DNA from: Cyanophyceae cyanobacterium
GTDB lineage: Bacteria; Cyanobacteriota; Cyanobacteriia; Cyanobacteriales; JBHJGN01
Reading direction: 5' to 3'
DNA length: 35,327 nucleotides
Assembly: GCA_050331735.1 (NCBI GenBank)
Contig: JBHJGN010000070.1
Span: forward strand, 1 to 35,327
Below are positions 4,305 through 26,329 of this stretch, one piece after another (position 1 is the stretch's first letter; the number at the start of each line of letters is the position of its first letter). The notes beneath the pieces were generated by a model. That model did not search any database, was not told the origin of the DNA, and was given only the letters and a program-made list of their open reading frames with translations. A program made the position numbers and the translations under genes.

Positions 4305-4463
4305 TAAATCACTCCTCACGGCACTGCAATTGAACACACAGACCAAAACAGCTCACTAGGCTATCGCAAGCAGCTATTGGTGTCAAAAGACAAGCTGTCA
4401 AAGATGAGGATCGAGAGGCGATCATCTTTCCCCTTCCCAACGCACTTTATAAAAAACAAATTA

Positions 4464-4482
4464 ATTGATAATAAATTTCAAT
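4464..4482. promoter_or_regulatory. Fur box in the divergent TBDT/exbB promoter
   Basis: 19-bp imperfect palindrome ATTGATAATAAATTTCAAT. Confidence 0.7.
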
Positions 4483-4529
4483 AAATAATGGTAAGATGTC
4501 AGACAACTCAAAAGACAATTTTAAGGTTT

Positions 4530-5177
4530 ATGCCCATCGAGAATTTTTGGACAGCAGGAGGGATTGTTAGCCTGCCCTTGCTGGGATTTTCTTTGTTAGC
4601 TGTTGCGCTGATTATCGAGCGCGTTGCTTTTTGGCTGAAAATTCAGCGCCGACAAAGACGAGTCGTTAAAGAAGCGCTTTCCCTCTACCGCAGCGATCCT
4701 TACGCCGCCATCAAAAAACTCAAGCAAAATGCCTCGTTGCCCATTGCCCGCATTTTCATTGAAGCGTTAGAGTTAGAGCGCCCCACCCCTGATGAGTTTC
4801 GCTTGGCGTTAGAAAGTGCGACCCAAGCAGAATTACCCATCCTCAGACGATTTAGCACTTTGTTTCAAACAATTATTACGGTTTCGCCCCTCCTAGGGTT
4901 ATTAGGAACCATTTTAGGGCTAATTCGGTCTTTTGCTTCTTTGGAAATCGGGAACGTTACCGCTACCAACACGGCAGGAGTGGCGGCAGGACTCAGTGAA
5001 GCGTTAGTTTCTACGGTGATGGGACTGATAGTAGCCATTTTCACCCTGTTGTTTGCTAATGCTTTTCGTGGACTCTATCTGCGGGAGTTAGCGTTTATTC
5101 AAGAATACGGAGGTCAGCTAGAATTGCTGTATCGGCGATCGCATGAAGGAGGGCGAAGCTATGCGTCTCCCCGATGA
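4530..5177 (+). CDS. exbB: ExbB (MotA/TolQ/ExbB proton channel)
   Basis: Motifs PLLGLLGTILGLI and GLSEALVSTVMGLIVAI; likely ATG at 4530. Confidence 0.92.
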   Translation: MPIENFWTAGGIVSLPLLGFSLLAVALIIERVAFWLKIQRRQRRVVKEALSLYRSDPYAAIKKLKQNASLPIARIFIEALELERPTPDEFRLALESATQAELPILRRFSTLFQTIITVSPLLGLLGTILGLIRSFASLEIGNVTATNTAGVAAGLSEALVSTVMGLIVAIFTLLFANAFRGLYLRELAFIQEYGGQLELLYRRSHEGGRSYASPR

Positions 5178-5562
5178 GCCAGAGTCGGGCTTTGAAATCA
5201 ACCTTGTGCCGATGATCGATGTCATTTTCTCGATCCTCGCCTTCTTTATTATTTCGACGCTGTTCTTAACCCGTTCGGAAGGATTGCCCGTCAATTTACC
5301 TTCTGCCCAAACTGCTCAAGTTGAGCCGAGTGCGCCCATCAACGTCACAATTGAACCGGATGGCGATCTGTTTCTCAACCGTCAATCAATTGAGCTTGAT
5401 AACTTACAGGGAGCCGTTGGCGCATTGATCGAACCAAACGCCGAGTCTCTAGTAATTATTAATGCCGATGAAAAGGTCGAACACGGACAAGTTGTGAGCG
5501 TCATGGATCGCCTGCGTCAGGTAGAAGGGGTAAAGCTAGCGATCGCCGCTAATAAAGAGTAG
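5161..5562 (+). CDS. exbD: ExbD biopolymer transporter
   Basis: EINLVPMIDVIFSILAFFI, VNLPSA, INADEKVEHGQVVSVMD; overlaps the exbB end. Confidence 0.92.
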   Translation: MRLPDEPESGFEINLVPMIDVIFSILAFFIISTLFLTRSEGLPVNLPSAQTAQVEPSAPINVTIEPDGDLFLNRQSIELDNLQGAVGALIEPNAESLVIINADEKVEHGQVVSVMDRLRQVEGVKLAIAANKE

Positions 5563-5703
5563 CGAGGAAATTTGGTGACTGGTTTAACTGGCTAGCGAGT
5601 AGGCGTAGAGCTAGGATTCGTGTTACCTAGTGCTAATTGCCCCCGCCCTCGTCATCGGTATGCCCCTCGATTTTAGCCATGCCCCAAGCGCTAAACGGCA
5701 GTT

Positions 5704-5940
5704 GATACAGTCGAGATCTCTGCGCTTCAACAGCTCTTGCATAACGGGCAAAAACTCCTCCTGCACCGTACAGCAGAGACAGCCATTCGCCAGCTCTAGA
5801 ATATTGTCTGAGCTGCCGTTGGCATCCTCATCGCAAATCTGGCAATCTCTCAGCAATTCCCCATCAATGCCGACTTCGCCAAATTCATTGACCAAGACGG
5901 CAATTCGGCGATCCTGATTATGCTGGAGCAAATGACGTAG
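5704..5940 (-). pseudogene. cobW: CobW (COG0523 GTPase metallochaperone) internal fragment
   Basis: RIAVLVNEFGEVGIDG and ELANGCLCCTVQEEF present; Walker A and the C-terminal two thirds are missing. Confidence 0.85.
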
Positions 5941-6003
5941 TAATACCAATTAGAAAAAGTAATAGGAGACTTGATGAGTTGGGGGGAAGGGGTAAAGGGG
6001 AAG
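5941..6003 (-). repeat. Degenerate copy of a dispersed MITE-like repeat end abutting the cobW truncation
   Basis: Minus strand reads CCAACTC...TACTTTTTCTAATTGGTATTA, sharing its terminus with copies at 18419 and 33349. Confidence 0.5.
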
Positions 6004-6104
6004 TGGAATTATGTTTACGGGAGAGCTTTTCTCGGACCTGCTTGTGAGTTATCTGTTCTTGGTGCGAGGTTATTTTGAGCTTGCTTAAATTCGATGAGCG
6101 GTGT

Positions 6105-7049
6105 TCATTCGGCTCTCCTTCGCCAACTAACGCCGACTATGCTAAAGAACAGAATACTCAGTACCGTTGTTGGTTCGGGAACAGATTGAGTATTTATTGC
6201 GCCAACCGCTTCTAGATCGAAGCCTCCCGCTCCGGGGACGGGAGTTGGCCAGGGGTCGTAGATAGGACGACCTTGAGCATCACTGAAAGCGCCGCTTCCG
6301 GGAATATCAACAATCCGCACGAAGTTAATAGCGTTGAGATCGACATTGGGCTGAGCGATCGCTGCTTCTGCCAGCACTTCTAGATCGAACGGCGTTCCCC
6401 AGGAGGTGGGCACGAATTGCTCGTCATCCAGAATAATGCCGTTGTTAACATGCTTACCGGCCAAGTTGTATACCTGAGTCGGATCGAGCTGTCCAAACGG
6501 ATCGAGAGGCTCTGGCGTTAGCGAAACGCTCGGAAAGCGCAGAAAGTTGATTCCGTCCGTAGAGACCTCGACATAAGCTAGTTCTGCAAATAGGTTGCCC
6601 GTGTCGGCGAAGCCGAAGCCATTCTCGAAGACAGCAAAATCGGGGCCCTCGCCGTTTTGCATCGGTGCATCAAAAGTCAGCGTAATCTGTCCAGGCATGG
6701 CTGACAACGCAATTTGCTCTGCCGTCAGTTCTCCCAGCGAAACAATATCGTCGAAAGCTCCTGTGACTGGTCCCAGCGCCCGTTCAGGGGTTTGCCACTG
6801 TTCTAAAACACCAGGAGCCGGGAGGTAGTCTGTGTATCCAGTTGCCCAACTAGCGAAGATGGGGTTAACCGTGTTATCGGCTGTGACGTTGCCTAGTCCA
6901 TCGGGACCGACAAAGCCAGGAATGCCAGAATCGATTTCCCCTGGGTCGAAGGTGGAGCCTGAAAAAGGCGCCCCCAGAGCTTTACCTCCTGTTAGGGGCA
7001 GCGCCATCGCGAGCAGGGTTAGAGTTTTCCAGAAAATTGGTTTTTGCAT
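6105..7049 (-). CDS. PEP-CTERM cell-surface protein with a BtuH-like (putative corrinoid-binding) domain
   Basis: Signal peptide; C-terminal VPEP-TM-RRR; motif string IVSLG..ITLTFD..NGEGPDFAVFENGF..ELAYVEVSTDG..FDL..INFVRIVD..GFDLEAV. Confidence 0.8.
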   Translation of the reverse strand: MQKPIFWKTLTLLAMALPLTGGKALGAPFSGSTFDPGEIDSGIPGFVGPDGLGNVTADNTVNPIFASWATGYTDYLPAPGVLEQWQTPERALGPVTGAFDDIVSLGELTAEQIALSAMPGQITLTFDAPMQNGEGPDFAVFENGFGFADTGNLFAELAYVEVSTDGINFLRFPSVSLTPEPLDPFGQLDPTQVYNLAGKHVNNGIILDDEQFVPTSWGTPFDLEVLAEAAIAQPNVDLNAINFVRIVDIPGSGAFSDAQGRPIYDPWPTPVPGAGGFDLEAVGAINTQSVPEPTTVLSILFFSIVGVSWRRRAE

Positions 7050-7271
7050 CGTTCTAGTTCCTTTGTAAAGCTAGTGACCTTGAGATGATTGTCCATGCAG
7101 GCTCGCCCTATGTTGCCTGAATAGTTAACGCTGTATTGTCCGCAACTGTTAGATTGTTAAATGACGCGAGGTAGAATCAAATCTTTGCCTTTGGAGGTTT
7201 TTATGCCCAGATTTAGGCAAGATAAGATGAACTTGCTCATGCCTTGTCTGAGCTCTCAAAGAGACAAGACT

Positions 7272-7850
7272 TTAGCTCTCTACTGAAGACGAGGATATGA
7301 AAATGCGCCAGAGAAGCAGACTATGACCGAGAGCGATCGCCCCTGCCCAAACGAGTTGCTTTAAAAACAACTTGGCAACGATATCCCAGTCCAGATAGTG
7401 CCCATCCGATAACACCGGAAACGCCAACAGGATTGAGCCTTGATAGAGGACAAATCCACTCAAAACCGCGATCGCCAACCAGAGGAAATGTCCCGTCCAG
7501 GTGGACTGGCTGAAAAAAGGTCGCCAACTGGCTAAGGCAACAACGAGCAACGTGCCCAGACCCATCAATATTCCCCAGGCGAAAGCCACTCCGGTTAAAG
7601 GGTAGCCCCGTAAACCAAAGCCAATCCCCTGATTGATCAACCAGCTCAGTAACGCCACCGTCACTGCCCGCTGTCGGGTCAGCATAACGCCACTCATAGT
7701 AGCAAAGGCAACCAGAGGCGGGTGGGCATACACAACATTACTCGCGGTGGCGATCGCTAATAGGGCAAAAGGAAGCCAGCGATTGTGCGCCAGCGATTGC
7801 CAGACTTGCTCGAAACTGTGCGTCTCAAGCTGTTCTAGGGATCTTGCCAT
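7272..7850 (-). CDS. Cobalamin-riboswitch-controlled integral membrane protein (putative cobalt/corrinoid transporter)
   Basis: 192 aa, about 5-6 TM segments, motif WLINQGIGFGLRGYP..WG; first gene after the riboswitch. Confidence 0.7.
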   Translation of the reverse strand: MARSLEQLETHSFEQVWQSLAHNRWLPFALLAIATASNVVYAHPPLVAFATMSGVMLTRQRAVTVALLSWLINQGIGFGLRGYPLTGVAFAWGILMGLGTLLVVALASWRPFFSQSTWTGHFLWLAIAVLSGFVLYQGSILLAFPVLSDGHYLDWDIVAKLFLKQLVWAGAIALGHSLLLWRIFISSSSVES

Positions 7851-7984
7851 CGCTCCTAGCTCCTGACCCTTGAAAGTTGTCTGGTCAAGCAGGCCGCCAG
7901 CAGGCTCTGATCGTTTTGTTCCCAGACTAAAGCAGAAAAATTTATCATCATCCGTACCTCGCAGATGTTGTCGAACATGAACGT

Positions 7985-8106
7985 TTCATCAGCGGGCATT
8001 CTGACTGGGAGGCGTATAACCTCCTTCACAGTTGCGGGACAGCGGCAGATTCTCACTGCTCTTTCCCCGTTTCCTCTAGCGGCTGCTCCCCGCTAGAACT
8101 GATGAA
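7985..8106 (-). ncRNA. Cobalamin riboswitch
   Basis: Minus strand: AGTTCTAGCGG..CCGCTAGAGG AAACGGGGAAAG..GTGAGAATC..GCTGTCCCGCAACTGT..AGTCAGAATGCCCGC; P1 TTCATCAG/CTGATGAA closes the aptamer. Confidence 0.95.
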
Positions 8107-8114
8107 GTAAGCAA

Positions 8115-8123
8115 ATTGTATCA
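8115..8123 (-). promoter_or_regulatory. Extended -10 element for the riboswitch transcript
   Basis: TGATACAAT on the minus strand, ~8 nt upstream of the aptamer P1. Confidence 0.55.
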
Positions 8124-8333: not shown

Positions 8334-8717
8334 ATGAAAATATCTCTTGTCGCTCGCAACCGAAGAGCGATTGTCTCAGTAATTTCCTTGCTAGCGATCG
8401 CTAAACCGAGTAAAGCCGTCGCCGTTCATCCAGAACCTTTAGAAACGAGAGAATCTTTTAATCCCAATGAAACAGTCACTAACGAATCTCGTCGAGCCTG
8501 CGTACGTCATCCTAAACTTGCTCAGCACTTCTGTACTTCCGCTTAACAGTTGCAGGATGTCAAAAAAGGAGTGCCAGAGATCGACGAATTGACTCGTCCC
8601 GAACAAGAACTGATGAATGTTACCGATGAAGAAAGTGATACGGCTGTGGAGATATTTGGGTGTGATTGCGTCGCCTCGATTAATTGTTTGCGTCGTCTGC
8701 GTAATCAACTTCCCTGA
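8334..8717 (+). pseudogene. Small secreted cyanobacterial Cys-motif protein with an in-frame stop
   Basis: After the TAA at 8544-8546 the frame continues QLQDVKKGVPEIDELTRPEQELMNVTDEESDTAVEIFGCDCVASINCLRRLRNQLP* to 8717; N-terminal signal-like segment. Confidence 0.7.
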
Positions 8718-8735
8718 TTTTGAGGAGAGGGAGAG

Positions 8736-9166
8736 TCGTTTTGGCTGAACAAAAACGGCATGAAACTCAATTTTGACAGCGTAGTTTTCTAGCGGTTCAA
8801 TAGCCGGACCCTCTATTAAGCTGCCATCTGGAGCAAATTTCGAGCCATGACAGGGACAGACAAAGTTTTCTGCTTCAGCTTCCCATTCCACAAAACAGCC
8901 CATATGAGGACAGGTAGGATCGACAGCCATCAATCTTGTTTCTGAGGGTGCAACAATCAGGATGGGACCAACAGTCGATTCTTCTCTGAAAATTGACCTG
9001 TTTGCTCTAATTCTTCGGCAATGCTGACCTGTTGCCACTTAACAGATTGTGGTTGAGACTCAAATGAGCGGTTGGATTTGTCTGGGAAAGTCATGGCAAT
9101 TGCTACAGGGAAGGAATTAGCCATCCAACCAACACCAAATAAGGCGAGAAGATTACGACGTTTCAT
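8736..9166 (-). pseudogene. Tat-exported Rieske [2Fe-2S] protein (PetC3-like), frameshifted
   Basis: N-terminus MKRRNLLALFGVGW is in one frame and CPHMGC...CPCHGS in another; the shift is at the A-run 8989-8992. The C-terminus reads on far past the domain; the end coordinate is approximate. Confidence 0.8.
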
Positions 9167-9346: not shown

Positions 9347-10687
9347 CTAGTTCCCAGCAAATTGAATAGTTTTTGCTGTTAATAATTGAGCTACTTTTGG
9401 GTCGTGAGAAGTGACGATCGCGCTTCCGCCTTCTTGAGCAAATAAATCTAATCCTGCTAACATTAATTCCAGCGATCGCGGGTCTTGTCCCACAGTAATT
9501 TCATCAAGTAAACAAATCCTAGGATTTCGGGCTAAAACCGCAGCAAAGGTTAAGCGCCGTTTTTGACCTCTAGAAAGAGATTGAGGGTGACGGTCGCGTA
9601 ATTGAGCCAGGTTTAATTGTTCTAGCCAGCGATTAGAAGCGGTTTCGCTAATTCCTACTTGTTTAACTTCCGCTTCGACTGACTCTGCAAATAATTGATG
9701 TTCGGGATTTTGTAAGACAAAACCAACCGTTTTAGCGAGTTCAGTAATCGGACGGTCCACTACTTTTTTGCCTAACAGCCACCAGTTTCCCGTTTGCGGA
9801 TGCAGTAACCCTGATAATAGTTTTAAGAGCGTTGTTTTCCCACAGCCATTTTCTCCTTGTAACAAGATAATTTCTCCCTGATACAGACTTAAATTGGGAA
9901 AGGAGGGATAGCCTCCCCAGCTCAAATTATCCGTTTCTAACACTAGGGTAGCTTGAGGAGAAGGCAGATTTAATTCTCGCTGAGGTTTTGAGGAAAAATA
10001 ATTAGGGATTCCTTTTTTTAAGAATTCCTCTTCAAAAGAGTAAGCGTGATCGCATAAATCTGCTACTAAATCAAACCGATGTTCGATTATCAAAATGCCT
10101 TGTCCTTGGTGGCTACAGTTACGCAATAATTGACGCAACTGTTGACTATTTGCTTGATCTAAATAAGCAAAAGGTTCATCGAGTAATAAAATTGATTGTC
10201 CCATCATTAAAACACAAGCTAAAACCAAGCGTTGTTTTTGTCCCGCAGAGAGTCTCTCAATTTGCCATTGTGCTTGTGAAATTAAGCCAAATTTCCTCAA
10301 AGAACTTTCCACAAGTAAAGGAATGCGATCGCTGCTAATATTAAGATTTTCCAGACCAAATGCTAATTCTTCCCAGACCGTATCTGTAAAGATTTGGGTT
10401 TCTACATTTTGTAATAAAACGCCAAAATAACGAGCGCGATCACGCACCGATTGTTGCGATAATGCTTTGTTTTTAACGGCAATTTCACCCGCTAATTCCC
10501 CTTGAATATGAGCAGGAGAAATCCCGGCCAAACAATTTAATAGGGTAGTTTTTCCGCTGCCAGTTGCCCCAGAAATGAGAATAATTTCTCCTGAATTGAG
10601 GGTGAGATTAACATTAGAAAAAGTTGGCTGCGATTGATTGCTGTAGGTAAATTTTAAATCAGTAATTGTTAAAAGTGGGTTAGACAT
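9347..10687 (-). CDS. ECF transporter fused double ATPase (A-A')
   Basis: Two ABC domains: GATGSGKTT/LSAGQKQR/LLLDEP and GENGCGKTT/LSRGQKRR/LLDE; ECF-type QNPEHQLF. Confidence 0.9.
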   Translation of the reverse strand: MSNPLLTITDLKFTYSNQSQPTFSNVNLTLNSGEIILISGATGSGKTTLLNCLAGISPAHIQGELAGEIAVKNKALSQQSVRDRARYFGVLLQNVETQIFTDTVWEELAFGLENLNISSDRIPLLVESSLRKFGLISQAQWQIERLSAGQKQRLVLACVLMMGQSILLLDEPFAYLDQANSQQLRQLLRNCSHQGQGILIIEHRFDLVADLCDHAYSFEEEFLKKGIPNYFSSKPQRELNLPSPQATLVLETDNLSWGGYPSFPNLSLYQGEIILLQGENGCGKTTLLKLLSGLLHPQTGNWWLLGKKVVDRPITELAKTVGFVLQNPEHQLFAESVEAEVKQVGISETASNRWLEQLNLAQLRDRHPQSLSRGQKRRLTFAAVLARNPRICLLDEITVGQDPRSLELMLAGLDLFAQEGGSAIVTSHDPKVAQLLTAKTIQFAGN

Positions 10688-11372
10688 ACAAAATTCCTAA
10701 CAACAATCCGAGACAGCCAAGAACAAATAGGGTATCAGGCAAAGACCAGGTTAAGGGTTGACTCATACTGCGGGACGAGTCAGGATCATAACCACGAGTT
10801 TCCAGCCCGATCGCAACTTCATCGGCATAAGAAACAATCCGAAAAATTAAAGGAATAAATAATCCTGAAACCACGTAGCGAGGCTGACGACTTAAATCAA
10901 TTCCTCGCAACTGATTGGCTTCAATAATACGGGTAGCTTCTCGCTGCATTAACGGCAAAAAACGCCAAGTTAGCATTACACTTAAGACTAAAAAACTGGG
11001 AAGGCGCAATGCTTGTAAGGCACGCACTAAAGAGGCGGGAGGCGTGGTTGCAGAAAGTAATGGTGTCGGTAAGGTAATGGCTAAAAGACGAAGCGTGTTA
11101 GTGATGGCAAAGTTCCAATCTCCTTGGGATAAGCCAACGGCAATTAACGTAAAAATCATGAGAAGCGCGATCGCTATTAGAATTAATCGGAAAGTTAGTT
11201 TAACTTCCCAAAGCATGAGGAAGAGAAAAACACCTGCAACCAAGCCTGCGGTTTGAATCTCTTGTAAAGCAAAGGCAATACTGGTAAACACTAAACTAGC
11301 TGCAATCTTTGCTAGCGGATTTACTCTGATTAAAAAACTGCGTTTGCGAGAAGCAAGCTGATCAATCATCAT
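10680..11372 (-). CDS. ECF transmembrane T component (EcfT/CbiQ family)
   Basis: NPLAKI, RFLPLM..EA.RI.EANQLRG, ETRGY conserved XRX motifs. Confidence 0.9.
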   Translation of the reverse strand: MMIDQLASRKRSFLIRVNPLAKIAASLVFTSIAFALQEIQTAGLVAGVFLFLMLWEVKLTFRLILIAIALLMIFTLIAVGLSQGDWNFAITNTLRLLAITLPTPLLSATTPPASLVRALQALRLPSFLVLSVMLTWRFLPLMQREATRIIEANQLRGIDLSRQPRYVVSGLFIPLIFRIVSYADEVAIGLETRGYDPDSSRSMSQPLTWSLPDTLFVLGCLGLLLGILYV

Positions 11373-11502
11373 GATTAGTTATTTGTTCCAAAAACGATGA
11401 ACGATGAACAAATTATTAAGCTGAGGTGCATTTAAACTGGGTACTGTCTCTAAAAACCTGCCTCCTGCCAATACATAAATTAAAAGCGTGACAGCTTAAT
11501 TA

Positions 11503-12057
11503 TTAACGGTTAATTATTTTCCCCGCTTTTTGCAGTTGTGTGACCACCTTTTCCCCCAACCACCAGCCAACAGCCCCAGACACTCCAGACAGCACGGTCA
11601 TTGGCGCTAAAATCCAGGCTTGACTCAACCAAGCAGCAAACGCTTCTCCCGCCACATAAGCCCCAATTAAAGCCCCTGCAACCGTAGCACTGCTAAAAAA
11701 AAGCACATTTCCTAGCAAGCGATCGCTCTTTTGGCGATATCCTCCTCGCGCTAACATGACTACCTCTGTGACTAAAATTGCCACACCGAGAAAAGCGCTA
11801 ATAATTAGAGAAACGCGACTTAAAATCAGCGCCAACGTACCAATGGTTAACGCGACGCTGCCACTGCGCTGCAATCTTGCCATTGCTAGAGTCAGAAATA
11901 TTGCTGCCAAAGGAGCCCAGACAATGGTGCGAATCCCTGGCAACGGAATCGAAATCACCAAGGGAACGGTGACAATACTGGCAATGGCGATGCCAATACT
12001 CATAAACGCGGCAAAGACATAATCTCCTAGCTGCCAAGTTCGGTTTTGCGATGCCAT
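11503..12057 (-). CDS. ECF substrate-specific S component (MptD/heme-ECF-like)
   Basis: 184 aa, about 6 TM segments, directly upstream of EcfT/EcfAA'; pattern DYVFAA...P..A.FL.L..ARL.RSG. Confidence 0.7.
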   Translation of the reverse strand: MASQNRTWQLGDYVFAAFMSIGIAIASIVTVPLVISIPLPGIRTIVWAPLAAIFLTLAMARLQRSGSVALTIGTLALILSRVSLIISAFLGVAILVTEVVMLARGGYRQKSDRLLGNVLFFSSATVAGALIGAYVAGEAFAAWLSQAWILAPMTVLSGVSGAVGWWLGEKVVTQLQKAGKIINR

Positions 12058-12066
12058 AAACTGCTC

Positions 12067-14412
12067 CTAAAACTGACTGCGTAAGCCAAATAAAACCCTC
12101 ACTCCAGGGGCTTTCGCAGTGGAAGTGGGATAAAAGTAGTCTGTATCGAAAAGATTTTCTACAGACAGAGTGAGTTCTTGTGTGGGGGTGAGTTGATACC
12201 CCAAACCCAGATCAACCGCGACGGCGCCCTCAGTTCCTTCGCCAATGACACCACCACTGAGTAAAACTTCTCCTTGGTCATCGTAGATGCGGGTTTGTAA
12301 AAAGCCACTGAAGCGCTCATCTTCATACAGTAAACGCACTAAAGCAGTGGTCGGAAAATCTTCTAACTGACTCAGCGGTTGACCCGATTCATCTTCACTA
12401 TCAACAATGGCAAGATTCCCTTCAATCGACCATTGCGGACTCAATTGATAGCCGAGCTTAAATTCTACCCCTTGGATTAAAATGTCTTTATTGGCTGTTT
12501 GCAGCGTGGGACTGCCCGGAGGTCCGGCGGGAGTTAAAGGGGCAACCCCGATAAAATCACTGATGTCATTGCGAAAATAGGTCACGCCACCGCTTAACGT
12601 GCCGTTATCAAAGTTTAGTCCGATGTCGAAATTATTCGCTCGTTCTGGATCTAAATCGGCGTTAGAGCGCACAAACCCGCGAGTTGGGGAAAAAGAGTCT
12701 TCAGCAAAGAGGTCTTGCAAAGTAGGCGGTCGAAAGCCTTGGGCAAAATAGACGCGGGCGGCTAAATTATCGGTCAATTCATAGACCAAACCGGCATTAA
12801 AGGTAACAGCACTCTCATCGCTTTCGTCTCCGCCGCTTTCTGTATCAAAAATATCAAAGCGGATCCCCCCAGCAAGGGTTAAATCCTCAATCGCATCAAA
12901 TGTTGACTGTAGGAAAACCCCGTTAAACGTTCGCGTGCCAAGAGGGGTTTCGCTTTCTGAAACTTCCCTAGCAGGGGAGGGAATTGTTGGCTCAAAAAGA
13001 ACAAAGTCTGTCTCTGTATCGGTTTCGGAGGTTTGGGCATCTCGACTAAAATCATAGCCGTAGGTAAGAACGAAGTCTTCACTAAGATTGCTGGTTCCTT
13101 TGGCGGAAAAGCCGAAGGTTTCGGTGAGGGTATCTTGCTGATTGTCGTTAATTTGCACTCCCGCGACCAGCGTTGGCGGTCCAAAGCCAGTGGCGATGGG
13201 AAAGGGTCTGGTAATTTCCTGAGTCGAATCGAAGCGTCGATCGCTGCGGAGATAATAGCCTTCTAACTCCACTGCCGTTGCTCCTTCACGGATGTAGGTT
13301 AAGGAGAAGCGATCCGTGTTGCGAAAATCGTTTTCGGCGCGGGTGAAAGGCTCGGTAAAACCGCTTAAATCTGCCCCGTTTTGCCGAAACAGTTCTCCCC
13401 TGATTTCTAGACGATCGCGATCGCTAAAATCAATTCCGCCTGCTGCGTAAGCGTTAAAAACTTCGTAATCAGTCCCCAGAGGAATATCATTGCCATCTCC
13501 ATCTTCCGCATCGCCTCCGGTTCGCGCGGCTAAGCCTAAAACATAGTTTGAGCCAGCCACTTCCAAGTTGCCATTAAATTCCGCAAAACCGCCTCCATAG
13601 AAATAGGAACGGACCCCAAACTCTCGATCGGGTCGCGGGCTGGTGGTGATGACGTTGACCACACCGCCAAAGGCATCCGCGCCATAGAGGGAAGAAGCCG
13701 GACCTTTGAGAACTTCAATCCGTTCAATGCGAAAGGGATCAACGGAGCCAAAATCGGGACCAAACTCTAGATTCGGTTGGCGATTGCCATTGATGAGTAG
13801 ACCAATTCGTTCTCCCGTCACCCCGCGAATGTTTGCTGAAGAAGTAATGGGTCCAAGACGATTAAGAGTCACTCCTGGAACGGTTTGGATCGCATCTCCC
13901 GTATTGCGGATTAACGCCCGACGTCGATTCAGTTCCTCTTCTGTTACTGTTTCCACACTGGCTGGGGTTTCTGCAACGGGAGTAGGACGGCGAGTGCTGA
14001 TGATCACCAATTCAATGGGCGGAGGTAAAACGGTTACTGTGAACCCAGTGGGGGCTTCTTCTAGAGAGATATTGGGTCGCTGATTGTTGCCAACCACTTC
14101 CACCCGCACTGTCTGCTCGTCCAACGGAAACACCCTCACAGCAGCAATGTCAGGAGTCGGGTTATTGCGGATGAACGGCTCCCCCCCAGCTAAGTTAAGT
14201 TGCGTATTGGGAAAATCAATGGCGATCGTGGTTTCATTCAAGGGCGTCTGCTGACCAGAAGAAAGTTCCAATTCCGCATCCAGGGTAATCGTCAACCCAC
14301 CATCGGCAGTTGCTTCCACCTGCACTTGGGTAATTCTTGTTTGCGCCAAGACTGGATGTACAACTGTCGTGACCAAGGCACTCAAACTAACCACTGAAAA
14401 TAAACGGTTCAC
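12067..14412 (-). CDS. AMIN-domain TonB-dependent receptor, heme/tetrapyrrole-receptor-like
   Basis: Signal peptide, AMIN domain, plug VDPFRIERIEVLKGPASSLYGADAFGGVVN, FRPPT...SNADLDPE (FRAP/NPNL-like), terminal Phe; GAGGAG RBS. Confidence 0.9.
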   Translation of the reverse strand: MNRLFSVVSLSALVTTVVHPVLAQTRITQVQVEATADGGLTITLDAELELSSGQQTPLNETTIAIDFPNTQLNLAGGEPFIRNNPTPDIAAVRVFPLDEQTVRVEVVGNNQRPNISLEEAPTGFTVTVLPPPIELVIISTRRPTPVAETPASVETVTEEELNRRRALIRNTGDAIQTVPGVTLNRLGPITSSANIRGVTGERIGLLINGNRQPNLEFGPDFGSVDPFRIERIEVLKGPASSLYGADAFGGVVNVITTSPRPDREFGVRSYFYGGGFAEFNGNLEVAGSNYVLGLAARTGGDAEDGDGNDIPLGTDYEVFNAYAAGGIDFSDRDRLEIRGELFRQNGADLSGFTEPFTRAENDFRNTDRFSLTYIREGATAVELEGYYLRSDRRFDSTQEITRPFPIATGFGPPTLVAGVQINDNQQDTLTETFGFSAKGTSNLSEDFVLTYGYDFSRDAQTSETDTETDFVLFEPTIPSPAREVSESETPLGTRTFNGVFLQSTFDAIEDLTLAGGIRFDIFDTESGGDESDESAVTFNAGLVYELTDNLAARVYFAQGFRPPTLQDLFAEDSFSPTRGFVRSNADLDPERANNFDIGLNFDNGTLSGGVTYFRNDISDFIGVAPLTPAGPPGSPTLQTANKDILIQGVEFKLGYQLSPQWSIEGNLAIVDSEDESGQPLSQLEDFPTTALVRLLYEDERFSGFLQTRIYDDQGEVLLSGGVIGEGTEGAVAVDLGLGYQLTPTQELTLSVENLFDTDYFYPTSTAKAPGVRVLFGLRSQF

Positions 14413-14443
14413 CTGAACTCCTCATATTCAGACTTTCAATTCT

Positions 14444-14458
14444 TCTCAATTTTTGAGA
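14444..14458. promoter_or_regulatory. Palindromic operator candidate in the divergent TBDT/chelatase promoter
   Basis: TCTCAA-TTT-TTGAGA perfect 6-3-6 inverted repeat, overlapping a Fur-like TTGAGAAGAATT on the minus strand. Confidence 0.4.
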
Positions 14459-14591
14459 GAAAGAAAAAACTTTCAGAAAATCCTACCAGCTTAACCAAAA
14501 CCCAGCTATGCCCCTCCCCTGCTAGGGCATAGCCAAAATGAGGCTTAACTGTTAAAGTTATGAGCAATTTTTAGGAATCGTCTCCAATAGA

Positions 14592-17500
14592 ATGATGTCT
14601 TCAGCCCCAGTGCAGATCACTGTAATTGCCCCGACTGCTTGTCTTGGGGATCTTGATAAGGCAGTTCGCCTCCAAACTGAGACCCCTGCCATTGAACTTC
14701 ATTCTTTCTCGGTGCGCCAAATTCAAGACGGCTCGATTGCTAGGGAAACGGTTCTAGAGAGTATTCAAAGCGCGATCGCGCTGCTATTTGATCTTCGTGG
14801 TAATCCTGATCGCGCTCTTGCCCTCGTTCGAGAAGCGCTTTCGGCAACCGCAGACACTAACATTGCTTTTATTCCCGTCTTTGAGGGCAGTCCTGCCATC
14901 ATGGGCTTAGTCCGCATGGGGAATTTTGCCCCCGCGATGCCACCTCAGTCAGCCGGACTCCCCCCTGAAACGACGCGTCAGGCAGAAAACTGGGCAAAAT
15001 GCGTGACCTATTGGACGAATTCGGGAACAGATAATTTAGCCAACCTGCTGCGTTTTGTTGCGTCTGAATATGGCGGGATAGCGACCGAAGTGGCAGACCC
15101 CATCATCTACCCTGATTTCGGGTTTATGGATTTGGATACAGGGACTCGCTACACGACCTATGAAGAGTACCTTCAAAACCATCCATTGGATGCTAATCTG
15201 CCCACAGTTGCGGTCATTTTCTACAGTGGAACAACCCTGACCACTAACCTACTCGGAGGTGCAGAATTACTGCAAACTTTGGAAAAGCAAGCGAATTTAC
15301 TGCCTTTCTTCAGTGATGGCATTGCCACAGCCGATGCAATCCAACAACACCTATTTCGCAATGGTCGTCCAGTCTGCGATGGAATCGTTTCCCTGTTACG
15401 CTTTCGCTTAGATGGCGGTCCCTTGGGGGGCAATCCCGAAAAAACCATTAACCTCCTCCAACAGTTCAACGTTCCCTACATTGTTCCTCTGAGCGCCAAC
15501 AACCAAGATATTGACCAGTGGCACGAAAGCGCGATCGGGCTGGGGGCAACGGAAACCCTTTCTCTAGTTTCGCTCCCAGAAATGGATGGCGCGATCGATC
15601 CCGTGATGCTGTACGGTGTGCAAAAGGAAATGGCAACTCCCATTCCTGGGCGAGGAGAAAAAGTCGCCCGTAGACTCCTCAACCGCATCGCCTTGAAGAA
15701 ACCCAATGTCGAGAAACGAGTGGCGATTGTGATCTTTGATTATCCTCCAGGGGAAGGCACTCTTGGAACAGCCTCCTTTTTGGATGTCTTTGCCTCAGTT
15801 GAAGCCATCCTCACCCGCTTGCAGAAGGCTGGCTATCAGGTTACTCCTCCGGCGTCGGGAACACTCAAAGACAGCTTCCTCAAAAAAGGACTGGTTCACA
15901 ATGGGGAGTTTACCTCGATTCAACTCACGGCTCAAAATGCCATTCGCGTTCCTCTCCAACAATATCTACACTGGTACCAGCAACTTCCTGCTGCCTTGCG
16001 AGCGAGGACCGAAGCCGTTTTTGGCGATCCGCCAGGAGATTTGATGACGGATCGAGGAGATATTCTCCTCGCGGCGCTCGAATTTGGCAATGCGATCGTC
16101 GCCGTTCAACCTTCCAGGGGCGTTCATGAAGATCCGACTAAAATTCACCATGACGATAGCTTACCCCCTCACCACCAGTACATTGCCCTCTATCGCTGGC
16201 TGGAAGAAAGCGCGAACGTTGATGCGATCGTTCACGTTGGCACTCATGGTACGTTTGAATTCTTACCGGGCAAGCAAGTTGCCCTGGCTGCTGAAGATGC
16301 CCCGGATGCCCTTTTAGGAGATTTGCCCCATCTCTACGTTTATCATGTTGTGAATGTTTCCGAAGGCTCGATCGCAAAACGGCGCAGTTACGCGCAATTG
16401 GTTAGCTATGCCTCTCCTACCTTTGCCCCCGCTGGACTCTATGCCGAATTAAGCCAACTCGAAGACACCATAGCTGAATACGAAGAGATGAAGACCAATT
16501 TACCGCGCCGAGTCGCCATCCTCGATCAGATTATGGCTTTGTGTCAAGAATACGGTCTTCCCTTCCCTAATTCTCGTCCTCATGGCATTCCCGACGATTT
16601 TTCACCCTACGAGGAAGCCTTGGAAGAATTACACCATACCCTTTTTGAATGGAAGCGCTCAGCAATTCCTGTTGGCTTGCACACTTTTGGTCAAACCTTA
16701 ACAGGAGAAGGATTAATCAACTACCTCAATCTTGTTGCCCGCTACGATCGCGCTGAAATCCCATCTCTCCCTCGCCTTTTGGCACAAAGAAAAGGATGGG
16801 ACTACGATCGCTTGCTCGATAGCGCTGACCCGAAAGTGGAATCTCTGGCGGCTGAAAGCTCGAACTTGATCGCCCGTCTACTTGAGGGGGAAGAAACGGT
16901 TACAGAAGACTGCAAGCCAATCACGTCTTACTTAAAAGATGTGGCAGAACGCATTCGCAACACCGATGAAATTGGGGCTTTATTGCACGCCCTTGATGGA
17001 GGGTATCTTGAACCAGGAATGGGAGGCGATCCCGTGCGATCGCCGCACACCTATCCGACCGGACGCAATACCTTTCAATTCGATCCGACCAAACTGCCAA
17101 CAGACAGCGCCTACGACCGAGGGTCACAAATTGCTGAGGAAACCCTCACTCGGTACTATCAAGAAAATGGCACTTATCCTGAATCAGTAGGAGTGATTCT
17201 CTGGGGGTTTGAAACCTGTAAAACCTTTGGTGAAACGATTGGACAAGTCTTGCATTACATTGGGGTGAAAGTTGATCGCGGTCGTGGTTACTTTATGAAA
17301 CCTGTCATCGTTCCTTTGAGTGAATTAGGTCGTCCTCGCATCGATGTCACCATCAATATTTGTGGCTTCTTCCGCGATTTATTCCCGAATTTAGTGAACC
17401 TCATTGATGAAGCCTTTCAAACCGTTGCAGAACTGGATGAACCAATGGAACTCAATGCCGTGCGTCGCCATGTCTTCCAGTTGCAATCAAAACTGGGAGA

Positions 17501-18272
17501 CACCCTAGAAGGACGAATGGCAGCAGGACGCTTGTTTGGTCCCCCTCCCGGCGAATATGGAAATCGGCTGAGTACGCTGATTGAAACCGCCGCTTGGGAA
17601 GAAGCAGCAGACCTCGGACGCACTTATCTCGAACGAACCCAGTATCTCTATGGTCGGGAAATGCCAGGAATGGAATCCCGCACTAGTTTGGAAGCTGCTC
17701 TAGCCAACACCCAAATCATTAGTCAAGTGCGAGACTGCCATGAATTTGAAGTGACCGATCTCGATCATTACTATGAATTTTTCGGCGGGATGGCGCAAGC
17801 AACCGCAGTGGTAACGGGAAAACGCCCTGATGTTCTTATTGCTGACACCACAGGAGAACGCATCAGCGTCAAATCTTTAAATCAAGCGGTGCAAAAAGGA
17901 GTGTCAACCCGTCTTCTTAATCCGAAGTGGATCGAAGGAATGTTGCAGCACGACCACAAAGGAGGACAGCAAATTGCTGATCGGGTGGAGTATTTGCTGG
18001 GCTTAGAAGCAACAACGGGCAGTGTCGGAGAAAGCACTTGGCACAAAGTTGCCCAGCGTTTTGTTTTTGATGTGCAGATGCGCGAACGTTTGCAAGCCAA
18101 CAATCCTTATGCCGTGGCTGAAATCGTTCAAAAATTGGGAGAAGCCAACTATCGCGGTTATTGGCAACCAACAGAAGCTGAAACTGAACAATTAAAAGAG
18201 GCTTATCGCGAGATTGAACGCGCCATTGAATTAGGGGAAACAGACTGCTCAAACTTCCACCTCCCCGCGTAG
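14592..18272 (+). CDS. CobN/magnesium chelatase H-family protein (non-canonical paralog)
   Basis: 1226 aa; LPEMDGAI, VHVGTHGTFEFLPGKQ, SEGSIAKRRSYA, GGDPVRSP..YPTGRN, ELGRPRIDV, DLDHYYEFFGG, TRLLNPKWIEGMLQH. Confidence 0.92.
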   Translation: MMSSAPVQITVIAPTACLGDLDKAVRLQTETPAIELHSFSVRQIQDGSIARETVLESIQSAIALLFDLRGNPDRALALVREALSATADTNIAFIPVFEGSPAIMGLVRMGNFAPAMPPQSAGLPPETTRQAENWAKCVTYWTNSGTDNLANLLRFVASEYGGIATEVADPIIYPDFGFMDLDTGTRYTTYEEYLQNHPLDANLPTVAVIFYSGTTLTTNLLGGAELLQTLEKQANLLPFFSDGIATADAIQQHLFRNGRPVCDGIVSLLRFRLDGGPLGGNPEKTINLLQQFNVPYIVPLSANNQDIDQWHESAIGLGATETLSLVSLPEMDGAIDPVMLYGVQKEMATPIPGRGEKVARRLLNRIALKKPNVEKRVAIVIFDYPPGEGTLGTASFLDVFASVEAILTRLQKAGYQVTPPASGTLKDSFLKKGLVHNGEFTSIQLTAQNAIRVPLQQYLHWYQQLPAALRARTEAVFGDPPGDLMTDRGDILLAALEFGNAIVAVQPSRGVHEDPTKIHHDDSLPPHHQYIALYRWLEESANVDAIVHVGTHGTFEFLPGKQVALAAEDAPDALLGDLPHLYVYHVVNVSEGSIAKRRSYAQLVSYASPTFAPAGLYAELSQLEDTIAEYEEMKTNLPRRVAILDQIMALCQEYGLPFPNSRPHGIPDDFSPYEEALEELHHTLFEWKRSAIPVGLHTFGQTLTGEGLINYLNLVARYDRAEIPSLPRLLAQRKGWDYDRLLDSADPKVESLAAESSNLIARLLEGEETVTEDCKPITSYLKDVAERIRNTDEIGALLHALDGGYLEPGMGGDPVRSPHTYPTGRNTFQFDPTKLPTDSAYDRGSQIAEETLTRYYQENGTYPESVGVILWGFETCKTFGETIGQVLHYIGVKVDRGRGYFMKPVIVPLSELGRPRIDVTINICGFFRDLFPNLVNLIDEAFQTVAELDEPMELNAVRRHVFQLQSKLGDTLEGRMAAGRLFGPPPGEYGNRLSTLIETAAWEEAADLGRTYLERTQYLYGREMPGMESRTSLEAALANTQIISQVRDCHEFEVTDLDHYYEFFGGMAQATAVVTGKRPDVLIADTTGERISVKSLNQAVQKGVSTRLLNPKWIEGMLQHDHKGGQQIADRVEYLLGLEATTGSVGESTWHKVAQRFVFDVQMRERLQANNPYAVAEIVQKLGEANYRGYWQPTEAETEQLKEAYREIERAIELGETDCSNFHLPA

Positions 18273-18512: not shown

Positions 18513-18818
18513 CTAGAGTTGCCCGTTGACTAAGCCATTAAATCCGTAGATTTGCCGACTACCAGCGATCGCTACCAGTTCCACTTCTCGTTCATCACCG
18601 GGTTCAAACCGAATCGACGAGCCCGCCGGGATGTTGAGGCGCATCCCCTTGGTTGGCTCGCGCTCGAACTGAAGCGCTGTATTGACCTCGTAGAAGTGAT
18701 AGTGAGAACCAACCTGAATCGGGCGATCGCCTGTATTGCTCACCGTCAGTTGCAGAGTTTCGCGACCCGCATTCAGTTCGATTTCGCCTTCGCCAACAAA
18801 CATTTCTCCTGGAATCAT
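18513..18818 (-). CDS. ureB: Urease subunit beta
   Basis: [38 protein letters not shown]. Confidence 0.97.
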
Positions 18819-20450: not shown

Positions 20451-20826
20451 TCATACACTCTGCAATTTATGTATGCTGGTCTTTCCGCTAATTGTATCTA
20501 CCATCAATATTCCCTCTGACTCTTGATCCATTTTCATAAGCAACTCACCTTGATTGTTCCAAACAGCCGACTGTCCAACGCAGACTAACTCCGATGATAA
20601 CGTTGTGCGCGTCGCTGCACTGCTGAAATACATTAAGACAGGAATCAGTTTTATCAGTGGCGAGCGACCGTGCGAGCTTTGGCTCATGACCCATGAGCGA
20701 TAACTCTGGGAAGAAAACTAAGTCAGCGCCTCGATCAATTGCAACCTCACTGAACTCTAAATGTTTGGCCAGGTTCGACGCGATGTTGCCTGTAACGGAT
20801 TGAAGTTGGACGGCACTAATTTTCAT
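20451..20826 (-). pseudogene. Carbon-nitrogen hydrolase (nitrilase family) with large internal deletion
   Basis: N-terminus MKISAVQ..GADLVFFPELSL joins out of frame at ~20585 to the C-terminus GQSAVWNNQGELL; the catalytic Lys/Cys region is absent. Confidence 0.85.
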
Positions 20827-20866
20827 AGTGAGCTTCTTGACCTCATGTTCCGAAAGTGCTGGCACT

Positions 20867-26026: not shown

Positions 26027-26329
26027 CTAACGAATTGGCTCGTGAACGGTCACCAGCTTGGTTCCGTCAGGAAAGGTGGCTTCTACTTGAACTTCAGGGA
26101 GCATTTCGGCAATGCCTGCCATCACGTCGTCTTGAGTAAGCAGGGTCGTTCCGTAGCTCATTAACTCAGCTACTGTCCGTCCGTCTCGCGCGCCTTCGAG
26201 AATTGCCGCAGAGATATAGGCGACGGCTTCTGGATAGTTGAGCTTTAACCCTCTTTCCTTGCGTTTTTCTGCTAGCAGGGCAGCAGTAAAAATCAATAGC
26301 TTATCTTTTTCTTGGGGCGATAGCTGCAT
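26027..26329 (-). CDS. ureA: Urease subunit gamma
   Basis: [38 protein letters not shown]. Confidence 0.97.

Follow-up and report, generated by a model that had tools for sequence, protein, structure and literature searches.

A TonB-dependent receptor and ECF transporter cassette linked to a class I chelatase large subunit outside the ChlH/BchH and CobN clades in a cyanobacterium: a candidate module for tetrapyrrole import and metal exchange

The window analysed in this work is the whole of contig C70 (JBHJGN010000070.1; 35,327 bases) from the genome of a cyanobacterium (assembly GCA_050331735.1), which is 5.57 Mb in size, 99.98% complete and contains genes for ChlH, NDH-1 and PetC-like proteins. 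In this window, a four-gene cassette encoding a TonB-dependent outer-membrane receptor and an energy-coupling factor (ECF) transporter is divergent from the gene for a class I chelatase large subunit, which is a member of the CobN/ChlH superfamily but groups with neither of the two canonical enzymes of the same genome. The linkage of the cassette and the chelatase is conserved in other genomes, and it is probable that the cassette imports a large chelate, that the chelatase acts on this chelate or on its metal, and that the two are functionally coupled. A more specific reading, which we rank first but hold tentatively, is that a porphyrin-type tetrapyrrole such as heme is imported and that the chelatase changes its metal. 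The features of the module are as follows.

9347-10687, minus strand: fused double ECF ATPase (A-A', 446 aa), with two ABC_tran stretches (191 bits)
10680-11372, minus strand: EcfT (CbiQ family) transmembrane coupling subunit, 230 aa (PF02361, 81.5 bits)
11503-12057, minus strand: ECF S (substrate-capture) component of a divergent MptD/Trep_Strep family, 184 aa (assigned from homologs and a structural model)
12067-14412, minus strand: TonB-dependent outer-membrane receptor, 781 aa (AMIN, Plug and barrel); the cassette begins with this gene
14413-14591: divergent intergenic region of 179 bp between the receptor and the chelatase (from the coordinates of the open reading frames)
14592-18272, plus strand: class I chelatase large subunit, 1226 aa (PF02514 CobN-Mg_chel, 1103 bits)

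The initial annotation of this DNA, made from its letters only, had described this gene run and its shared promoter region, and the description was borne out: the open reading frames are found at the above coordinates, all five genes are intact, the divergent gap is of 179 bp, and the GTG start of the receptor is kept in the three orthologous loci. The EcfT gene overlaps the ATPase gene by 8 bases. Likewise, none of the window open reading frames scanned gave a match to the Peripla_BP_2, heme oxygenase, ChlI/ChlD or CobS/CobT families.

The linkage of the chelatase to the receptor and the ECF transporter, noted initially in this one stretch, is conserved in other genomes, where it is seen in three different gene arrangements. 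In all three genomes with a chelatase of ~90% identity (viz. G435, G436 and G437), the receptor-S-T-AA' cassette is present at 78-93% identity, the receptor orthologs being 86-90% identical. In G436, the start of the chelatase lies 186 bp head-to-head from that of the receptor, as in the window. In G435, a single contig carries both of them, likewise divergent, with ~15 kb in between, and in G437, the chelatase and cassette pieces both stop at contig ends. The ~15-kb insertion in G435 looks like a defence or mobile island, as this part of its contig C23 (~6.1-21.5 kb; L009 1-9800; L150) encodes a SNF2-type helicase with NOV_C, a DUF1156/DUF559 protein and a toxin-antitoxin-like UPF0175/DUF3368 pair.

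Metagenome contigs were also scanned with an alignment of the S component, yielding 41 loci. In all 15 of the loci in which the S component is at least 67% identical, a receptor (47-49% identical to that of the window) is encoded directly upstream of the S gene, and the order of the cassette genes is the same in 15/15. Seven of these 15 loci extend at least 2.8 kb past the ATPase gene, and in five of the seven a full-length chelatase, 61-66% identical to that of the window, is present on the opposite strand, converging on the ATPase gene; however, L113 and L114 among them seem to be two assemblies of a single sequence, in which case the count would be 4/6. Four other near-identical contigs (L140-L143, ~9700-13000) hold remnants, ordered as in the intact module, of the receptor (89 aa), the S component (44 aa) and the ATPase (106 aa), along with a remnant of the chelatase (54 aa) in L140, L141 and L143, and they represent a decayed copy of the module. 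A more distant example is provided by a Bacteroidales metagenome-assembled genome (MAG), where the genes for a receptor, a DUF4374 protein, a Trep_Strep S component, CbiQ and a double ATPase are divergent from those for ChlI, a VWA protein and a chelatase (L017), and in L048 and L052 CbiQ and a double ATPase are encoded beside a chelatase. In four of the five convergent metagenome loci, a gene for a 124-aa protein of the VOC/glyoxalase family lies 3' of the chelatase (L104 6222-6596; L115 3496-3870; and within the VOC/hydrolase stretches L113 6691-8101 and L116 12648-14039), and in L113 and L116 there is also a gene for a 300-aa alpha/beta hydrolase in this position.

If the chelatase were a redundant or decaying paralog that had by chance come to lie next to an uptake cassette unrelated to it, within an island of acquired genes, then no functional coupling of the two would exist. 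Several genes in the island are broken, in L107 and L111, both of which are informative as to the gene next to the cassette, the cassette is accompanied by other genes in place of the chelatase, and 21 loci whose S component is less closely related (43-53% identical) contain S-T-AA' without a chelatase, with a receptor in only one of them. However, the linkage has been kept through three arrangements and in two phyla, the frames are full-length and the catalytic residues conserved, and in L140, L141 and L143 the remnants of the cassette and of the chelatase decay together, so that this explanation is very improbable. Due to the conservation of the linkage in other genomes and arrangements, the functional coupling of import with a class I chelatase subunit is well supported.

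The relationship of the window chelatase to other members of the superfamily was examined by searching the host genome with PF02514, which identified four genes. These are a canonical ChlH on contig C15 (PRK12493, 2278 bits; cut-off 1300), a canonical CobN on C16 (TIGR02257, 1658 bits; cut-off 822), a BchH-like paralog on C57 next to a divergent AraC gene (TIGR02025, 1559 bits) and the window chelatase on C70, which is the fourth CobN/ChlH-family copy of the genome. The latter scores just over the cut-off of the BchH model TIGR02025 (892 vs 829 bits) and is below those of PRK12493 (864 vs 1300), PRK13405 (694 vs 1166) and TIGR02257 (621 vs 822). Against solved structures, its scores are 625 bits for ChlH, 498 for Mycobacterium tuberculosis CobN and 390 for HmuS. 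The BchH-like paralog (C57:22376-26044; L008 10377-14045) is a 1222-aa protein encoded divergently from an AraC-type regulator gene, and with its orthologs in G435 and G436 it forms its own branch inside the ChlH/BchH clade.

A phylogenetic tree was constructed with FastTree (local supports only) from 173 rows, comprising 133 cluster representatives (the best 150 from 1.84 billion proteins minus 17 shorter than 1100 aa), 36 proteins from the fetched loci and the four genome paralogs; eight rows from loci were dropped (two with a wrong longest frame, five with a broken chelatase frame and one duplicate), and the tree was rooted with a true HmuS homolog from Bacteroidales (1200 bits to 9d26). 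In this tree, the window chelatase forms a cluster with 100 local support together with the three ~90% identical orthologs (L009-L011) and the 64% identical P0051. The enclosing clade, with a support of 99, consists of 68 rows in the drawn tree (66 in the residue count given below), and its members are from Clostridia and other Bacillota, Thermodesulfobacteriota, Bacteroidales, Dehalococcoidia, Methanotrichaceae and Thermoproteota. This clade is sister (support 99) to a ChlH/BchH clade of 27 rows (support 100), which holds the ChlH and the BchH-like paralog of the genome but not the window chelatase, whereas the CobN side, including the genome's CobN, is separate (67 rows). Both canonical enzymes exist elsewhere in the genome, the window chelatase groups with neither of them, and its phylogeny places it apart from ChlH/BchH, CobN and HmuS alike. 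Neither of the two conditions under which the initial annotation would have failed, namely that this is the sole chlH or cobN of the genome or that the linkage is absent from other genomes, thus holds. The placement outside ChlH/BchH and CobN is strong; the branching order within the clade does not.

The closest orthologs of the window chelatase are from Dactylococcopsis and other cyanobacterial MAGs. No match above 35% identity was found in any of 60 genomes of the same order (0/60), only three close orthologs are present in the species-level genome collection, and the S component was detected in 1/400 other genomes sampled from the phylum, as a partial frame. Among named records, homologs of the S component occur in those of Nodularia chucula, Phormidesmis and Leptolyngbyaceae. 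As the cyanobacterial cluster is a tight one nested within a clade of anaerobes, the tree suggests that the cyanobacterial chelatase was acquired by transfer.

Important information concerning the chelatase is also provided by its active site. For ChlH, residues H621, E660 and H1174 are described as essential, and E625, Y651 and Y653 as lining the channel (PMC13297055; for the papers cited here by PMC number, our statements refer to those parts of each source that were available). The window chelatase keeps the positions of H617, H621, E625, Y651, Y653, E660 and H1174. With the exception of the H1174 position, these catalytic and channel residues are conserved throughout the superfamily, including the HmuS homolog, and hence do not discriminate between families. 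At the H1174 position, His is present in 63/66 rows of the window chelatase's clade, in 22/27 rows of ChlH/BchH and in the HmuS homolog, and the 67 rows of the CobN side most often have D (41 rows), C (17), G (3) or A (2). The surrounding motif in the window chelatase is DLDHYYEFFGG, and among the clade members shown hardly any departure from the form DLDHYYE(F/Y)(F/L)GG is seen. This motif is closer to the HmuS motif LSLDHxxEFMGG, containing His-1209 (PMC12583661), than to the TDVSHYFD of ChlH. In the HmuS homolog L098 this region reads LSLDHVYEFMGG, which has in common with the window chelatase the core DH..EF.GG and differs in its flanks. No hydrophobic segment was found in the 1226 aa of the window chelatase by a Kyte-Doolittle scan, and no long insertion relative to ChlH in the alignment; its N-terminal 120 residues lie outside the model match. 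Because its catalytic residues are intact and it lacks a hydrophobic segment, the protein is predicted to be a catalytically competent, cytoplasmic and non-anchored enzyme. That its active site is nearer to the porphyrin-handling than to the corrin-handling branches is suggestive only.

The sister relationship with ChlH/BchH and the retention of the ChlH catalytic set, inclusive of H1174, are also what would be expected if pheophorbide or a similar Mg-free chlorin from the mat were imported and Mg re-inserted into it by this subunit together with ChlI/ChlD. The host has ChlI/ChlD, the DNA comes, according to its record, from a metagenome of microbial-mat type, and the genes noted above 3' of the chelatase, for an alpha/beta hydrolase in L113 and L116 and for a VOC-family protein in L104, L113, L115 and L116, are compatible with such a role. 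However, both of the latter give only generic family matches (for the hydrolase, BchO with 38 bits vs a cut-off of 173), neither a hydrolase nor a VOC gene is found beside the module in the window, the clade is dominated by non-phototrophic anaerobes and archaea, and no chlorin transporter of such a kind is known. Salvage of chlorins is thus quite improbable.

The gene neighbourhoods of the relatives were compared for 12 loci of the window chelatase's clade. ChlI/ChlD-like AAA+ and VWA proteins are encoded in 8/12 of these, FecCD and/or Peripla_BP_2 importers in 6/12 and TonB receptors in 3/12, while ECF-type parts are found beside the chelatase in L015, L017, L048 and L052, L015 having a CbiM-PDGLE S component and two TonB receptors. 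In view of the counts for ChlI/ChlD and for FecCD/Peripla_BP_2, the clade would typically consist of complete three-subunit, ATP-driven chelatases located next to an importer for large chelates. ChlI/ChlD-like genes were not seen in the five convergent metagenome loci; in the window there are none beside the chelatase, the ChlI of the host genome being on C7 and its ChlD on C55. The initial annotation had taken the orphan state of the chelatase as pointing to dechelation. It will be incorrect to draw this interpretation, as 8 of the 12 relatives encode such partners and the ChlI/ChlD of the host, located elsewhere in the genome, may serve the window chelatase. Since CbiK is also present in C. 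malenominatum and in the Bacteroidales MAG (genomes G434 and G432), the class I enzyme in these two is an extra rather than the sole cobalt chelatase. A contig from Methanotrichaceae (L077 6308-14989) contains two tandem CobN-family genes with an ABC ATPase gene between them, the second being read as two frames (906 + 336 aa).

Turning to the transport part, the receptor (12067-14412) matches the Pfam barrel (151.5 bits), Plug (89.7) and AMIN (34.9) models. The description of it as heme-type proved to be overstated: its best NCBIfam model is TonB-hemin TIGR01785, yet its score of 243 bits is below the cut-off of 317, and the scores with the TonB-B12 and TonB-copper models are 92 and 87 bits, respectively. 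Among solved structures, the best matches are to CirA (95 bits) and PhuR (92 bits), and OprC (73) and ZnuD (53) are matched as well. The double ATPase has ECF ATPases and CbiO as its best NCBIfam models, and its gene has a GC content of 0.40 vs 0.495 for the genome. For the 184-aa S protein, there is no Pfam match at 1e-3, PF09605 (Trep_Strep) being below its cut-off (E 0.0079, 16.7 bits). However, PF09605 matches 22/28 of its aligned homologs (best 1.4e-11), Trep_Strep clusters account for 29/30 of its Atlas matches, and its AlphaFold2 (AF2) model (pLDDT 90.4) is a seven-helix bundle whose best match in the Protein Data Bank (PDB) is the ECF S component 5edl (TMq 0.61, 21% identity), and it is on these grounds that the protein is assigned as an S component. 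A profile search of the PDB with the cyanobacterial S components gave no match. The relation of the window S component to that of L017 is drawn from their Pfam family solely, as an HMM of the cyanobacterial S components matched none of the loci L009-L088 at E<=0.01. The S, T and A components are encoded in one operon, which is the arrangement of group I ECF transporters.

These observations also bear on whether the receptor and the ECF transporter import Co, Ni, Zn or Cu, as an ion or a small chelate, with the chelatase then using this metal on an endogenous tetrapyrrole. The CbiM-PDGLE S component and two TonB receptors beside the chelatase in L015, the best matches of the ATPase and EcfT to cobalt-ECF models, the likeness of the receptor to copper and zinc receptors (OprC, ZnuD and the TonB-copper model, with the scores given above) and a CobW remnant nearby accord with metal supply. 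However, the S component is of the Trep_Strep family and not CbiM/NikM, and the endogenous pathways already have ChlH, CobN and CbiX. Further, the presence in the relatives' loci of FecCD/Peripla_BP_2 importers for large chelates (6/12) and of TonB receptors (3/12) argues for a bulky chelate rather than an ion, and the supply of a metal alone is unlikely.

A further possibility is indicated by the cobalamin- and cobalt-related genes found near the module and its relatives. In the window, a riboswitch unit (5623-8118) lies 1.3 kb from the ECF operon and is considered here as context only. It consists of the following.

7974-8118, minus strand: cobalamin riboswitch RF00174 (52.1 bits)
7272-7850, minus strand: membrane protein with the fold of an S component, 192 aa (AF2 model)
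6105-7049, minus strand: PEP-CTERM protein, 314 aa (family match)
5623-5949, minus strand: CobW fragment, 108 aa (family match)

The 192-aa protein belongs to a family without a name, which is common in filamentous marine cyanobacteria. Its AF2 model has a pLDDT of 90.6, and ECF S components constitute the top 13 rows of a wide structural search (Z 9.0-11.0, 141-165 residues aligned), including BtuM with hydroxycobalamin (Z 10.5), with unrelated rows starting at Z 8.5 or lower; no clear match was obtained by phmmer against the PDB or by Foldseek. From the modelled fold, this protein might be a candidate B12 or cobalt transporter, perhaps sharing the neighbouring EcfT-AA' module. The two other cobalamin riboswitches of the genome control an intact CobW and a HupE/UreJ protein.

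Fourteen loci were scanned for riboswitches, and in four of the five from Bacillota (Firmicutes) the chelatase is accompanied by a cobalamin riboswitch. In L016, L025 and L026 the riboswitch is directly before the chelatase operon, and in L023 it is ~9 kb upstream on the same strand, its membership in the operon being inferred. In L025, the genes after that of the chelatase encode BtuR and methylmalonyl-CoA mutase. The scan gave no riboswitch in L015, L017, L020, L022, L077, L011 or L048. Downstream of the chelatase ortholog in the cyanobacterial locus L010 are, in this order, ExbD, a cobalamin riboswitch and a second operon, and the arrangement is the same in L009, where a run of N masks part of the riboswitch. 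This second operon encodes another receptor, whose best model is TonB-B12 (184 bits), a DUF7676 protein, a BtuF-like protein, a metallophosphoesterase and FecCD, and in its gene content it matches the cobalamin uptake operon named btuB-cpdA-btuF-btuC in Synechococcus PCC 7002, as this is given in the available part of PMC12967095. The riboswitch of the window is homologous to that of L010 and is like it even beyond the aptamer, but the genes downstream are different. In the Dactylococcopsis MAGs, the btuB-like operon has upstream of it both the riboswitch (L010 4218-4358) and a near-perfect Fur-family box with 1 mismatch (L010 4584-4598; L009 14514-14528), which hints at a double control by B12 and a metal. 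Within 14 kb of L025 (9676-23267; Selenomonadales) there are six cobalamin riboswitches, of which one immediately precedes the gene of a lone chelatase large subunit and another lies before the methylmalonyl-CoA mutase genes.

In contrast to these cases, no riboswitch was found in the divergent region of the window (14413-14591) at E<=1 or in any of the cassette loci scanned (0/15). The module is therefore located in a cobalt/B12-flavoured island, and its own two transcription units are without a riboswitch. The receptor-proximal part of the 179-bp region is conserved in G435, G436 and G437, and no 9-mer is common to at least 6 of 13 distinct promoters. A palindrome in this region, TCTCAA-N3-TTGAGA (14444-14458), was considered as an operator and rejected, as it occurs in no other fetched locus and 15/100 shuffles gave at least one match.

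If the imported molecule were an incomplete, metal-free or wrongly metallated corrinoid, then the ChlH-like subunit with ChlI/ChlD, and perhaps with a CobW-type chaperone, would insert cobalt into it, which is the role predicted earlier for B12-regulated CobN-like and ChlI/ChlD genes located near btu genes. The riboswitches upstream of the chelatase operons in L016, L023, L025 and L026, the BtuR and methylmalonyl-CoA mutase genes that follow the chelatase in L025, and the riboswitch and btuB-like operon that follow the 90% identical chelatase-ExbD in L009/L010 are all in accordance with this, as are, in the host genome, the control by riboswitches of an S-component-fold protein (whose unit lies 1.3 kb from the ECF operon and has a CobW remnant at its end), of CobW and of HupE; the extra class I enzyme of G434 and G432, which also have CbiK, points in the same direction. 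However, the cyanobacterial cassettes themselves have no riboswitch (0/15, and none in the 179-bp region), the cassette receptor is less BtuB-like (TonB-B12, 92 bits) than the receptor that is under riboswitch control (184 bits), the active-site His is as in ChlH/HmuS and not the Asp/Cys of CobN, and the genome already has a canonical CobN along with two CbiX-like genes. Metal-free corrinoids are, moreover, rare in nature. Cobalt insertion into an acquired corrinoid is thus a possibility to be kept in mind, though a somewhat unlikely one.

The import of a porphyrin-type tetrapyrrole such as heme, the reading that we prefer tentatively, is ranked first due to the TonB-hemin family being the best, although sub-threshold, match of the receptor, the presence in the sister genomes of a separate BtuB-like receptor, the lack of riboswitches on the cassette, and the His-type active site. 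The second and third of these points also speak against cobalamin itself as the substrate. According to this proposal, the receptor would carry a bulky organic chelate over the outer membrane, energised by ExbB/ExbD, and the S component, EcfT and the double ATPase would carry it over the inner membrane. In the cytoplasm, the soluble ChlH-like subunit would take the imported ring and change its metal, and removal of the metal by reverse chelatase action would yield Fe2+ and a porphyrin, which could be fed straight into the phototroph's own pathway. We lean slightly towards metal removal, but an ATP-driven re-metallation with the housekeeping ChlI/ChlD motor is nearly as likely, because of the ChlI/ChlD genes of the relatives and those of the host (C7 and C55). 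That the imported molecule is a tetrapyrrole, which tetrapyrrole it would be, in which direction the enzyme would work, and that the host ChlI/ChlD are used, is what we infer from these comparisons.

A number of observations weigh against this preferred reading. The score of the cassette receptor for the heme family is under the threshold, and whereas heme receptors have a His between the FRAP and NPNL boxes, no His is present between the corresponding GFRPP and NADLDPE boxes of the cassette receptor sequence. A search of 17 promoters for a Fur/Zur-type box (7-1-7, up to 3 mismatches) in the 400 nt 5' of the cassette receptor gave none, and no substrate for the MptD/Trep_Strep S family was found in the literature searched, most subscription journals being outside its scope. 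Cyanobacteria, in addition, already free the iron of heme by means of heme oxygenase. The cobalamin riboswitches of the Bacillota chelatase loci, the B12-riboswitch units and CobW/btu genes beside the module in the window and in L009/L010, and the two cassettes with other genes in the place of the chelatase (L107 and L111) are further points of this kind, and the motor proteins encoded by the relatives point to energy-requiring insertion, and not removal, as the probable ancestral chemistry of the clade.

A broader form of the proposal is that cyanobacteria of the mat import a foreign or degraded ring by way of the TonB receptor and an ECF transporter whose S-component family had no earlier assignment, the metal of this ring being stripped or replaced by the acquired ChlH-sister subunit together with the host ChlI/ChlD. 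Heme, a free porphyrin, a Mg-free chlorin and a metal-free corrinoid would all be candidates for this ring, and the ring and metal would re-enter the pigment and cofactor pathways. We consider such a pathway of macrocycle re-use to be doubtful at present.

Among known systems, one close in its logic is HmuR/HmuS of Bacteroidota, for which the heme dechelatase activity of HmuS was demonstrated in 2025 (PMC12583661). There also, the genes for a TonB-dependent receptor and a large subunit of the CobN/ChlH superfamily go together, HmuS acts on an imported tetrapyrrole, and both HmuS and the window chelatase have the HxGxHG motif and DH..EF.GG with a His facing the active site. However, HmuS is of more than 1400 aa, has a methionine-rich insertion and terminal membrane anchors and acts outside the cytoplasm (PMC12583661), HmuS/BtuS proteins in general being described as membrane-anchored (PMC12583661; PMC6460266), whereas the window chelatase is a protein of 1226 aa, predicted to be soluble, which belongs to another clade (390 bits to 9d26 vs 625 to ChlH), and the inner-membrane route in the window is an ECF transporter. 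As a true HmuS homolog (1200 bits) and the L017-type system occur together in one Bacteroidales MAG, these two should not be interpreted as the same thing. According to the HmuS study, most other clusters of the superfamily cannot be annotated (PMC12583661), and as the window chelatase does not qualify as ChlH, CobN or HmuS, it would belong to one of the clades lacking annotation.

Class I chelatase subunits beside TonB receptors and importers have earlier been predicted to function in metalloporphyrin or corrinoid salvage (PMC6460266; PMC8620254). These include BtuS, a CobN-like third type beside CobN and ChlH, for which salvage of metalloporphyrins was predicted (Rodionov 2003, as reported in PMC6460266), and chelatase genes of Chlorobaculum beside a cobalamin receptor, for which cobalt insertion into an acquired corrinoid was speculated (PMC8620254). 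So far as BtuS is described in these sources, the window module is similar in having a non-canonical class I subunit, neither CobN nor ChlH, beside a TonB receptor and importer, and the relatives of the window chelatase show exactly this type of context, with riboswitches. It differs in that its importer is an ECF transporter and not BtuFCD, ChlI/ChlD are not adjacent, neither of its units has a riboswitch, and its host is a cyanobacterium making its own tetrapyrroles. In view of these predictions, and of the demonstrated activity of HmuS, the one branch for which such a scheme has been put to the test, the designation of the module as undescribed went too far. No assay of any member of the window chelatase's clade was found in the literature searched.

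With the canonical enzymes, the relationship is as follows. ChlH/BchH (PDB 4zhj) is the best solved relative (625 bits) and the sister clade, and all of its named catalytic residues are kept; however, the window chelatase is outside the clade with support of 100, and the genome has its own ChlH. With CobN (PDB 7c6o), it shares the superfamily and the domain PF02514 but differs in its separate clade and in the His where the CobN side has mostly Asp or Cys. The orphan state of the window chelatase resembles that of cyanobacterial CobN, which is without CobS/CobT and is speculated to borrow ChlI/ChlD, as far as the available text of PMC8620254 goes. For the transporter, LhaSTA of Staphylococcus lugdunensis is an ECF importer of heme (PMC7299338), similar in being a dedicated group I ECF transporter for a tetrapyrrole located within an uptake locus, but it is from a Gram-positive organism and, in the account cited, has no outer-membrane receptor or chelatase. 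The best match in S-component fold is the 5edl-type group I ECF system with a fused double ATPase, corresponding to the dedicated S-T-AA' layout of the window. We take 5edl to be YkoE of the thiamine-precursor system YkoEDC. Its sequence similarity is marginal, the window operon begins with an outer-membrane receptor, and the substrate in the window surely differs from that of the 5edl system.

In relation to these systems, what is new in the module is the ECF inner-membrane route with an MptD/Trep_Strep S component in place of BtuFCD/HmuTUV, an enzyme, by prediction cytoplasmic, with no AAA+ genes alongside, and an oxygenic phototroph as host, which has ChlH, CobN and BchH-like genes of its own. 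Neither this arrangement of cassette and chelatase nor the import of a tetrapyrrole by an ECF transporter supplied from a TonB receptor was found described in the literature searched.

Other features of the window that are of relevance to the island are the following.

2292-4346, minus strand: second TonB-dependent receptor gene (AMIN, Plug and barrel), with one in-frame stop at codon 323
4488-5177, plus strand: ExbB (Pfam MotA_ExbB, 105 bits)
5143-5562, plus strand: ExbD (Pfam ExbD, 103 bits)
8439-9038: Rieske fragment (family match)
20545-20865: NadE N-terminal fragment (family match)

The genes around the module had been described as decaying, which holds for the second receptor, CobW, Rieske and NadE, all of which are broken, but not for ExbB/ExbD or the TPMT, P450 and urease genes, which look whole. 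ExbB/ExbD (4488-5562) are likely to be the energisers of the TonB-dependent receptors of the island; they also flank the cassette in L113 and L111, and ExbD is 3' of the chelatase in L009/L010. The interrupted receptor gene is divergent from ExbB-ExbD, and a Fur-type 7-1-7 box with 2 mismatches is found at 4466, 22 bases 5' of the ExbB start. On the other side, the genes for urease beta, urease gamma and UreD (18513-18818, 26027-26329 and 26465-27307, minus strand) are split by ~7 kb of unrelated genes (viz. TPMT, the NadE fragment, an M8-like peptidase with a PPC domain, P450 and GNAT), with ureB adjoining the chelatase module.

The CobN/ChlH/HmuS superfamily contains thousands of members without an assigned function, and the module described here provides for one of its clades a conserved, compact and testable context, which is found in organisms of a culturable type. 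If a ring is indeed imported, then phototrophs would be capable of an oxygen-independent re-use of both metal and macrocycle, and a first substrate would be obtained for the MptD/Trep_Strep family of S components. If instead the B12-related explanation is correct, the module would bear on the repair or completion of corrinoids in microbial mats. Lastly, if the pathway of macrocycle re-use is correct, then the module would be, among the (de)chelatase salvage systems, the first with a cytoplasmic enzyme fed by an ECF transporter, and it would provide a function for a large clade of the CobN/ChlH superfamily.

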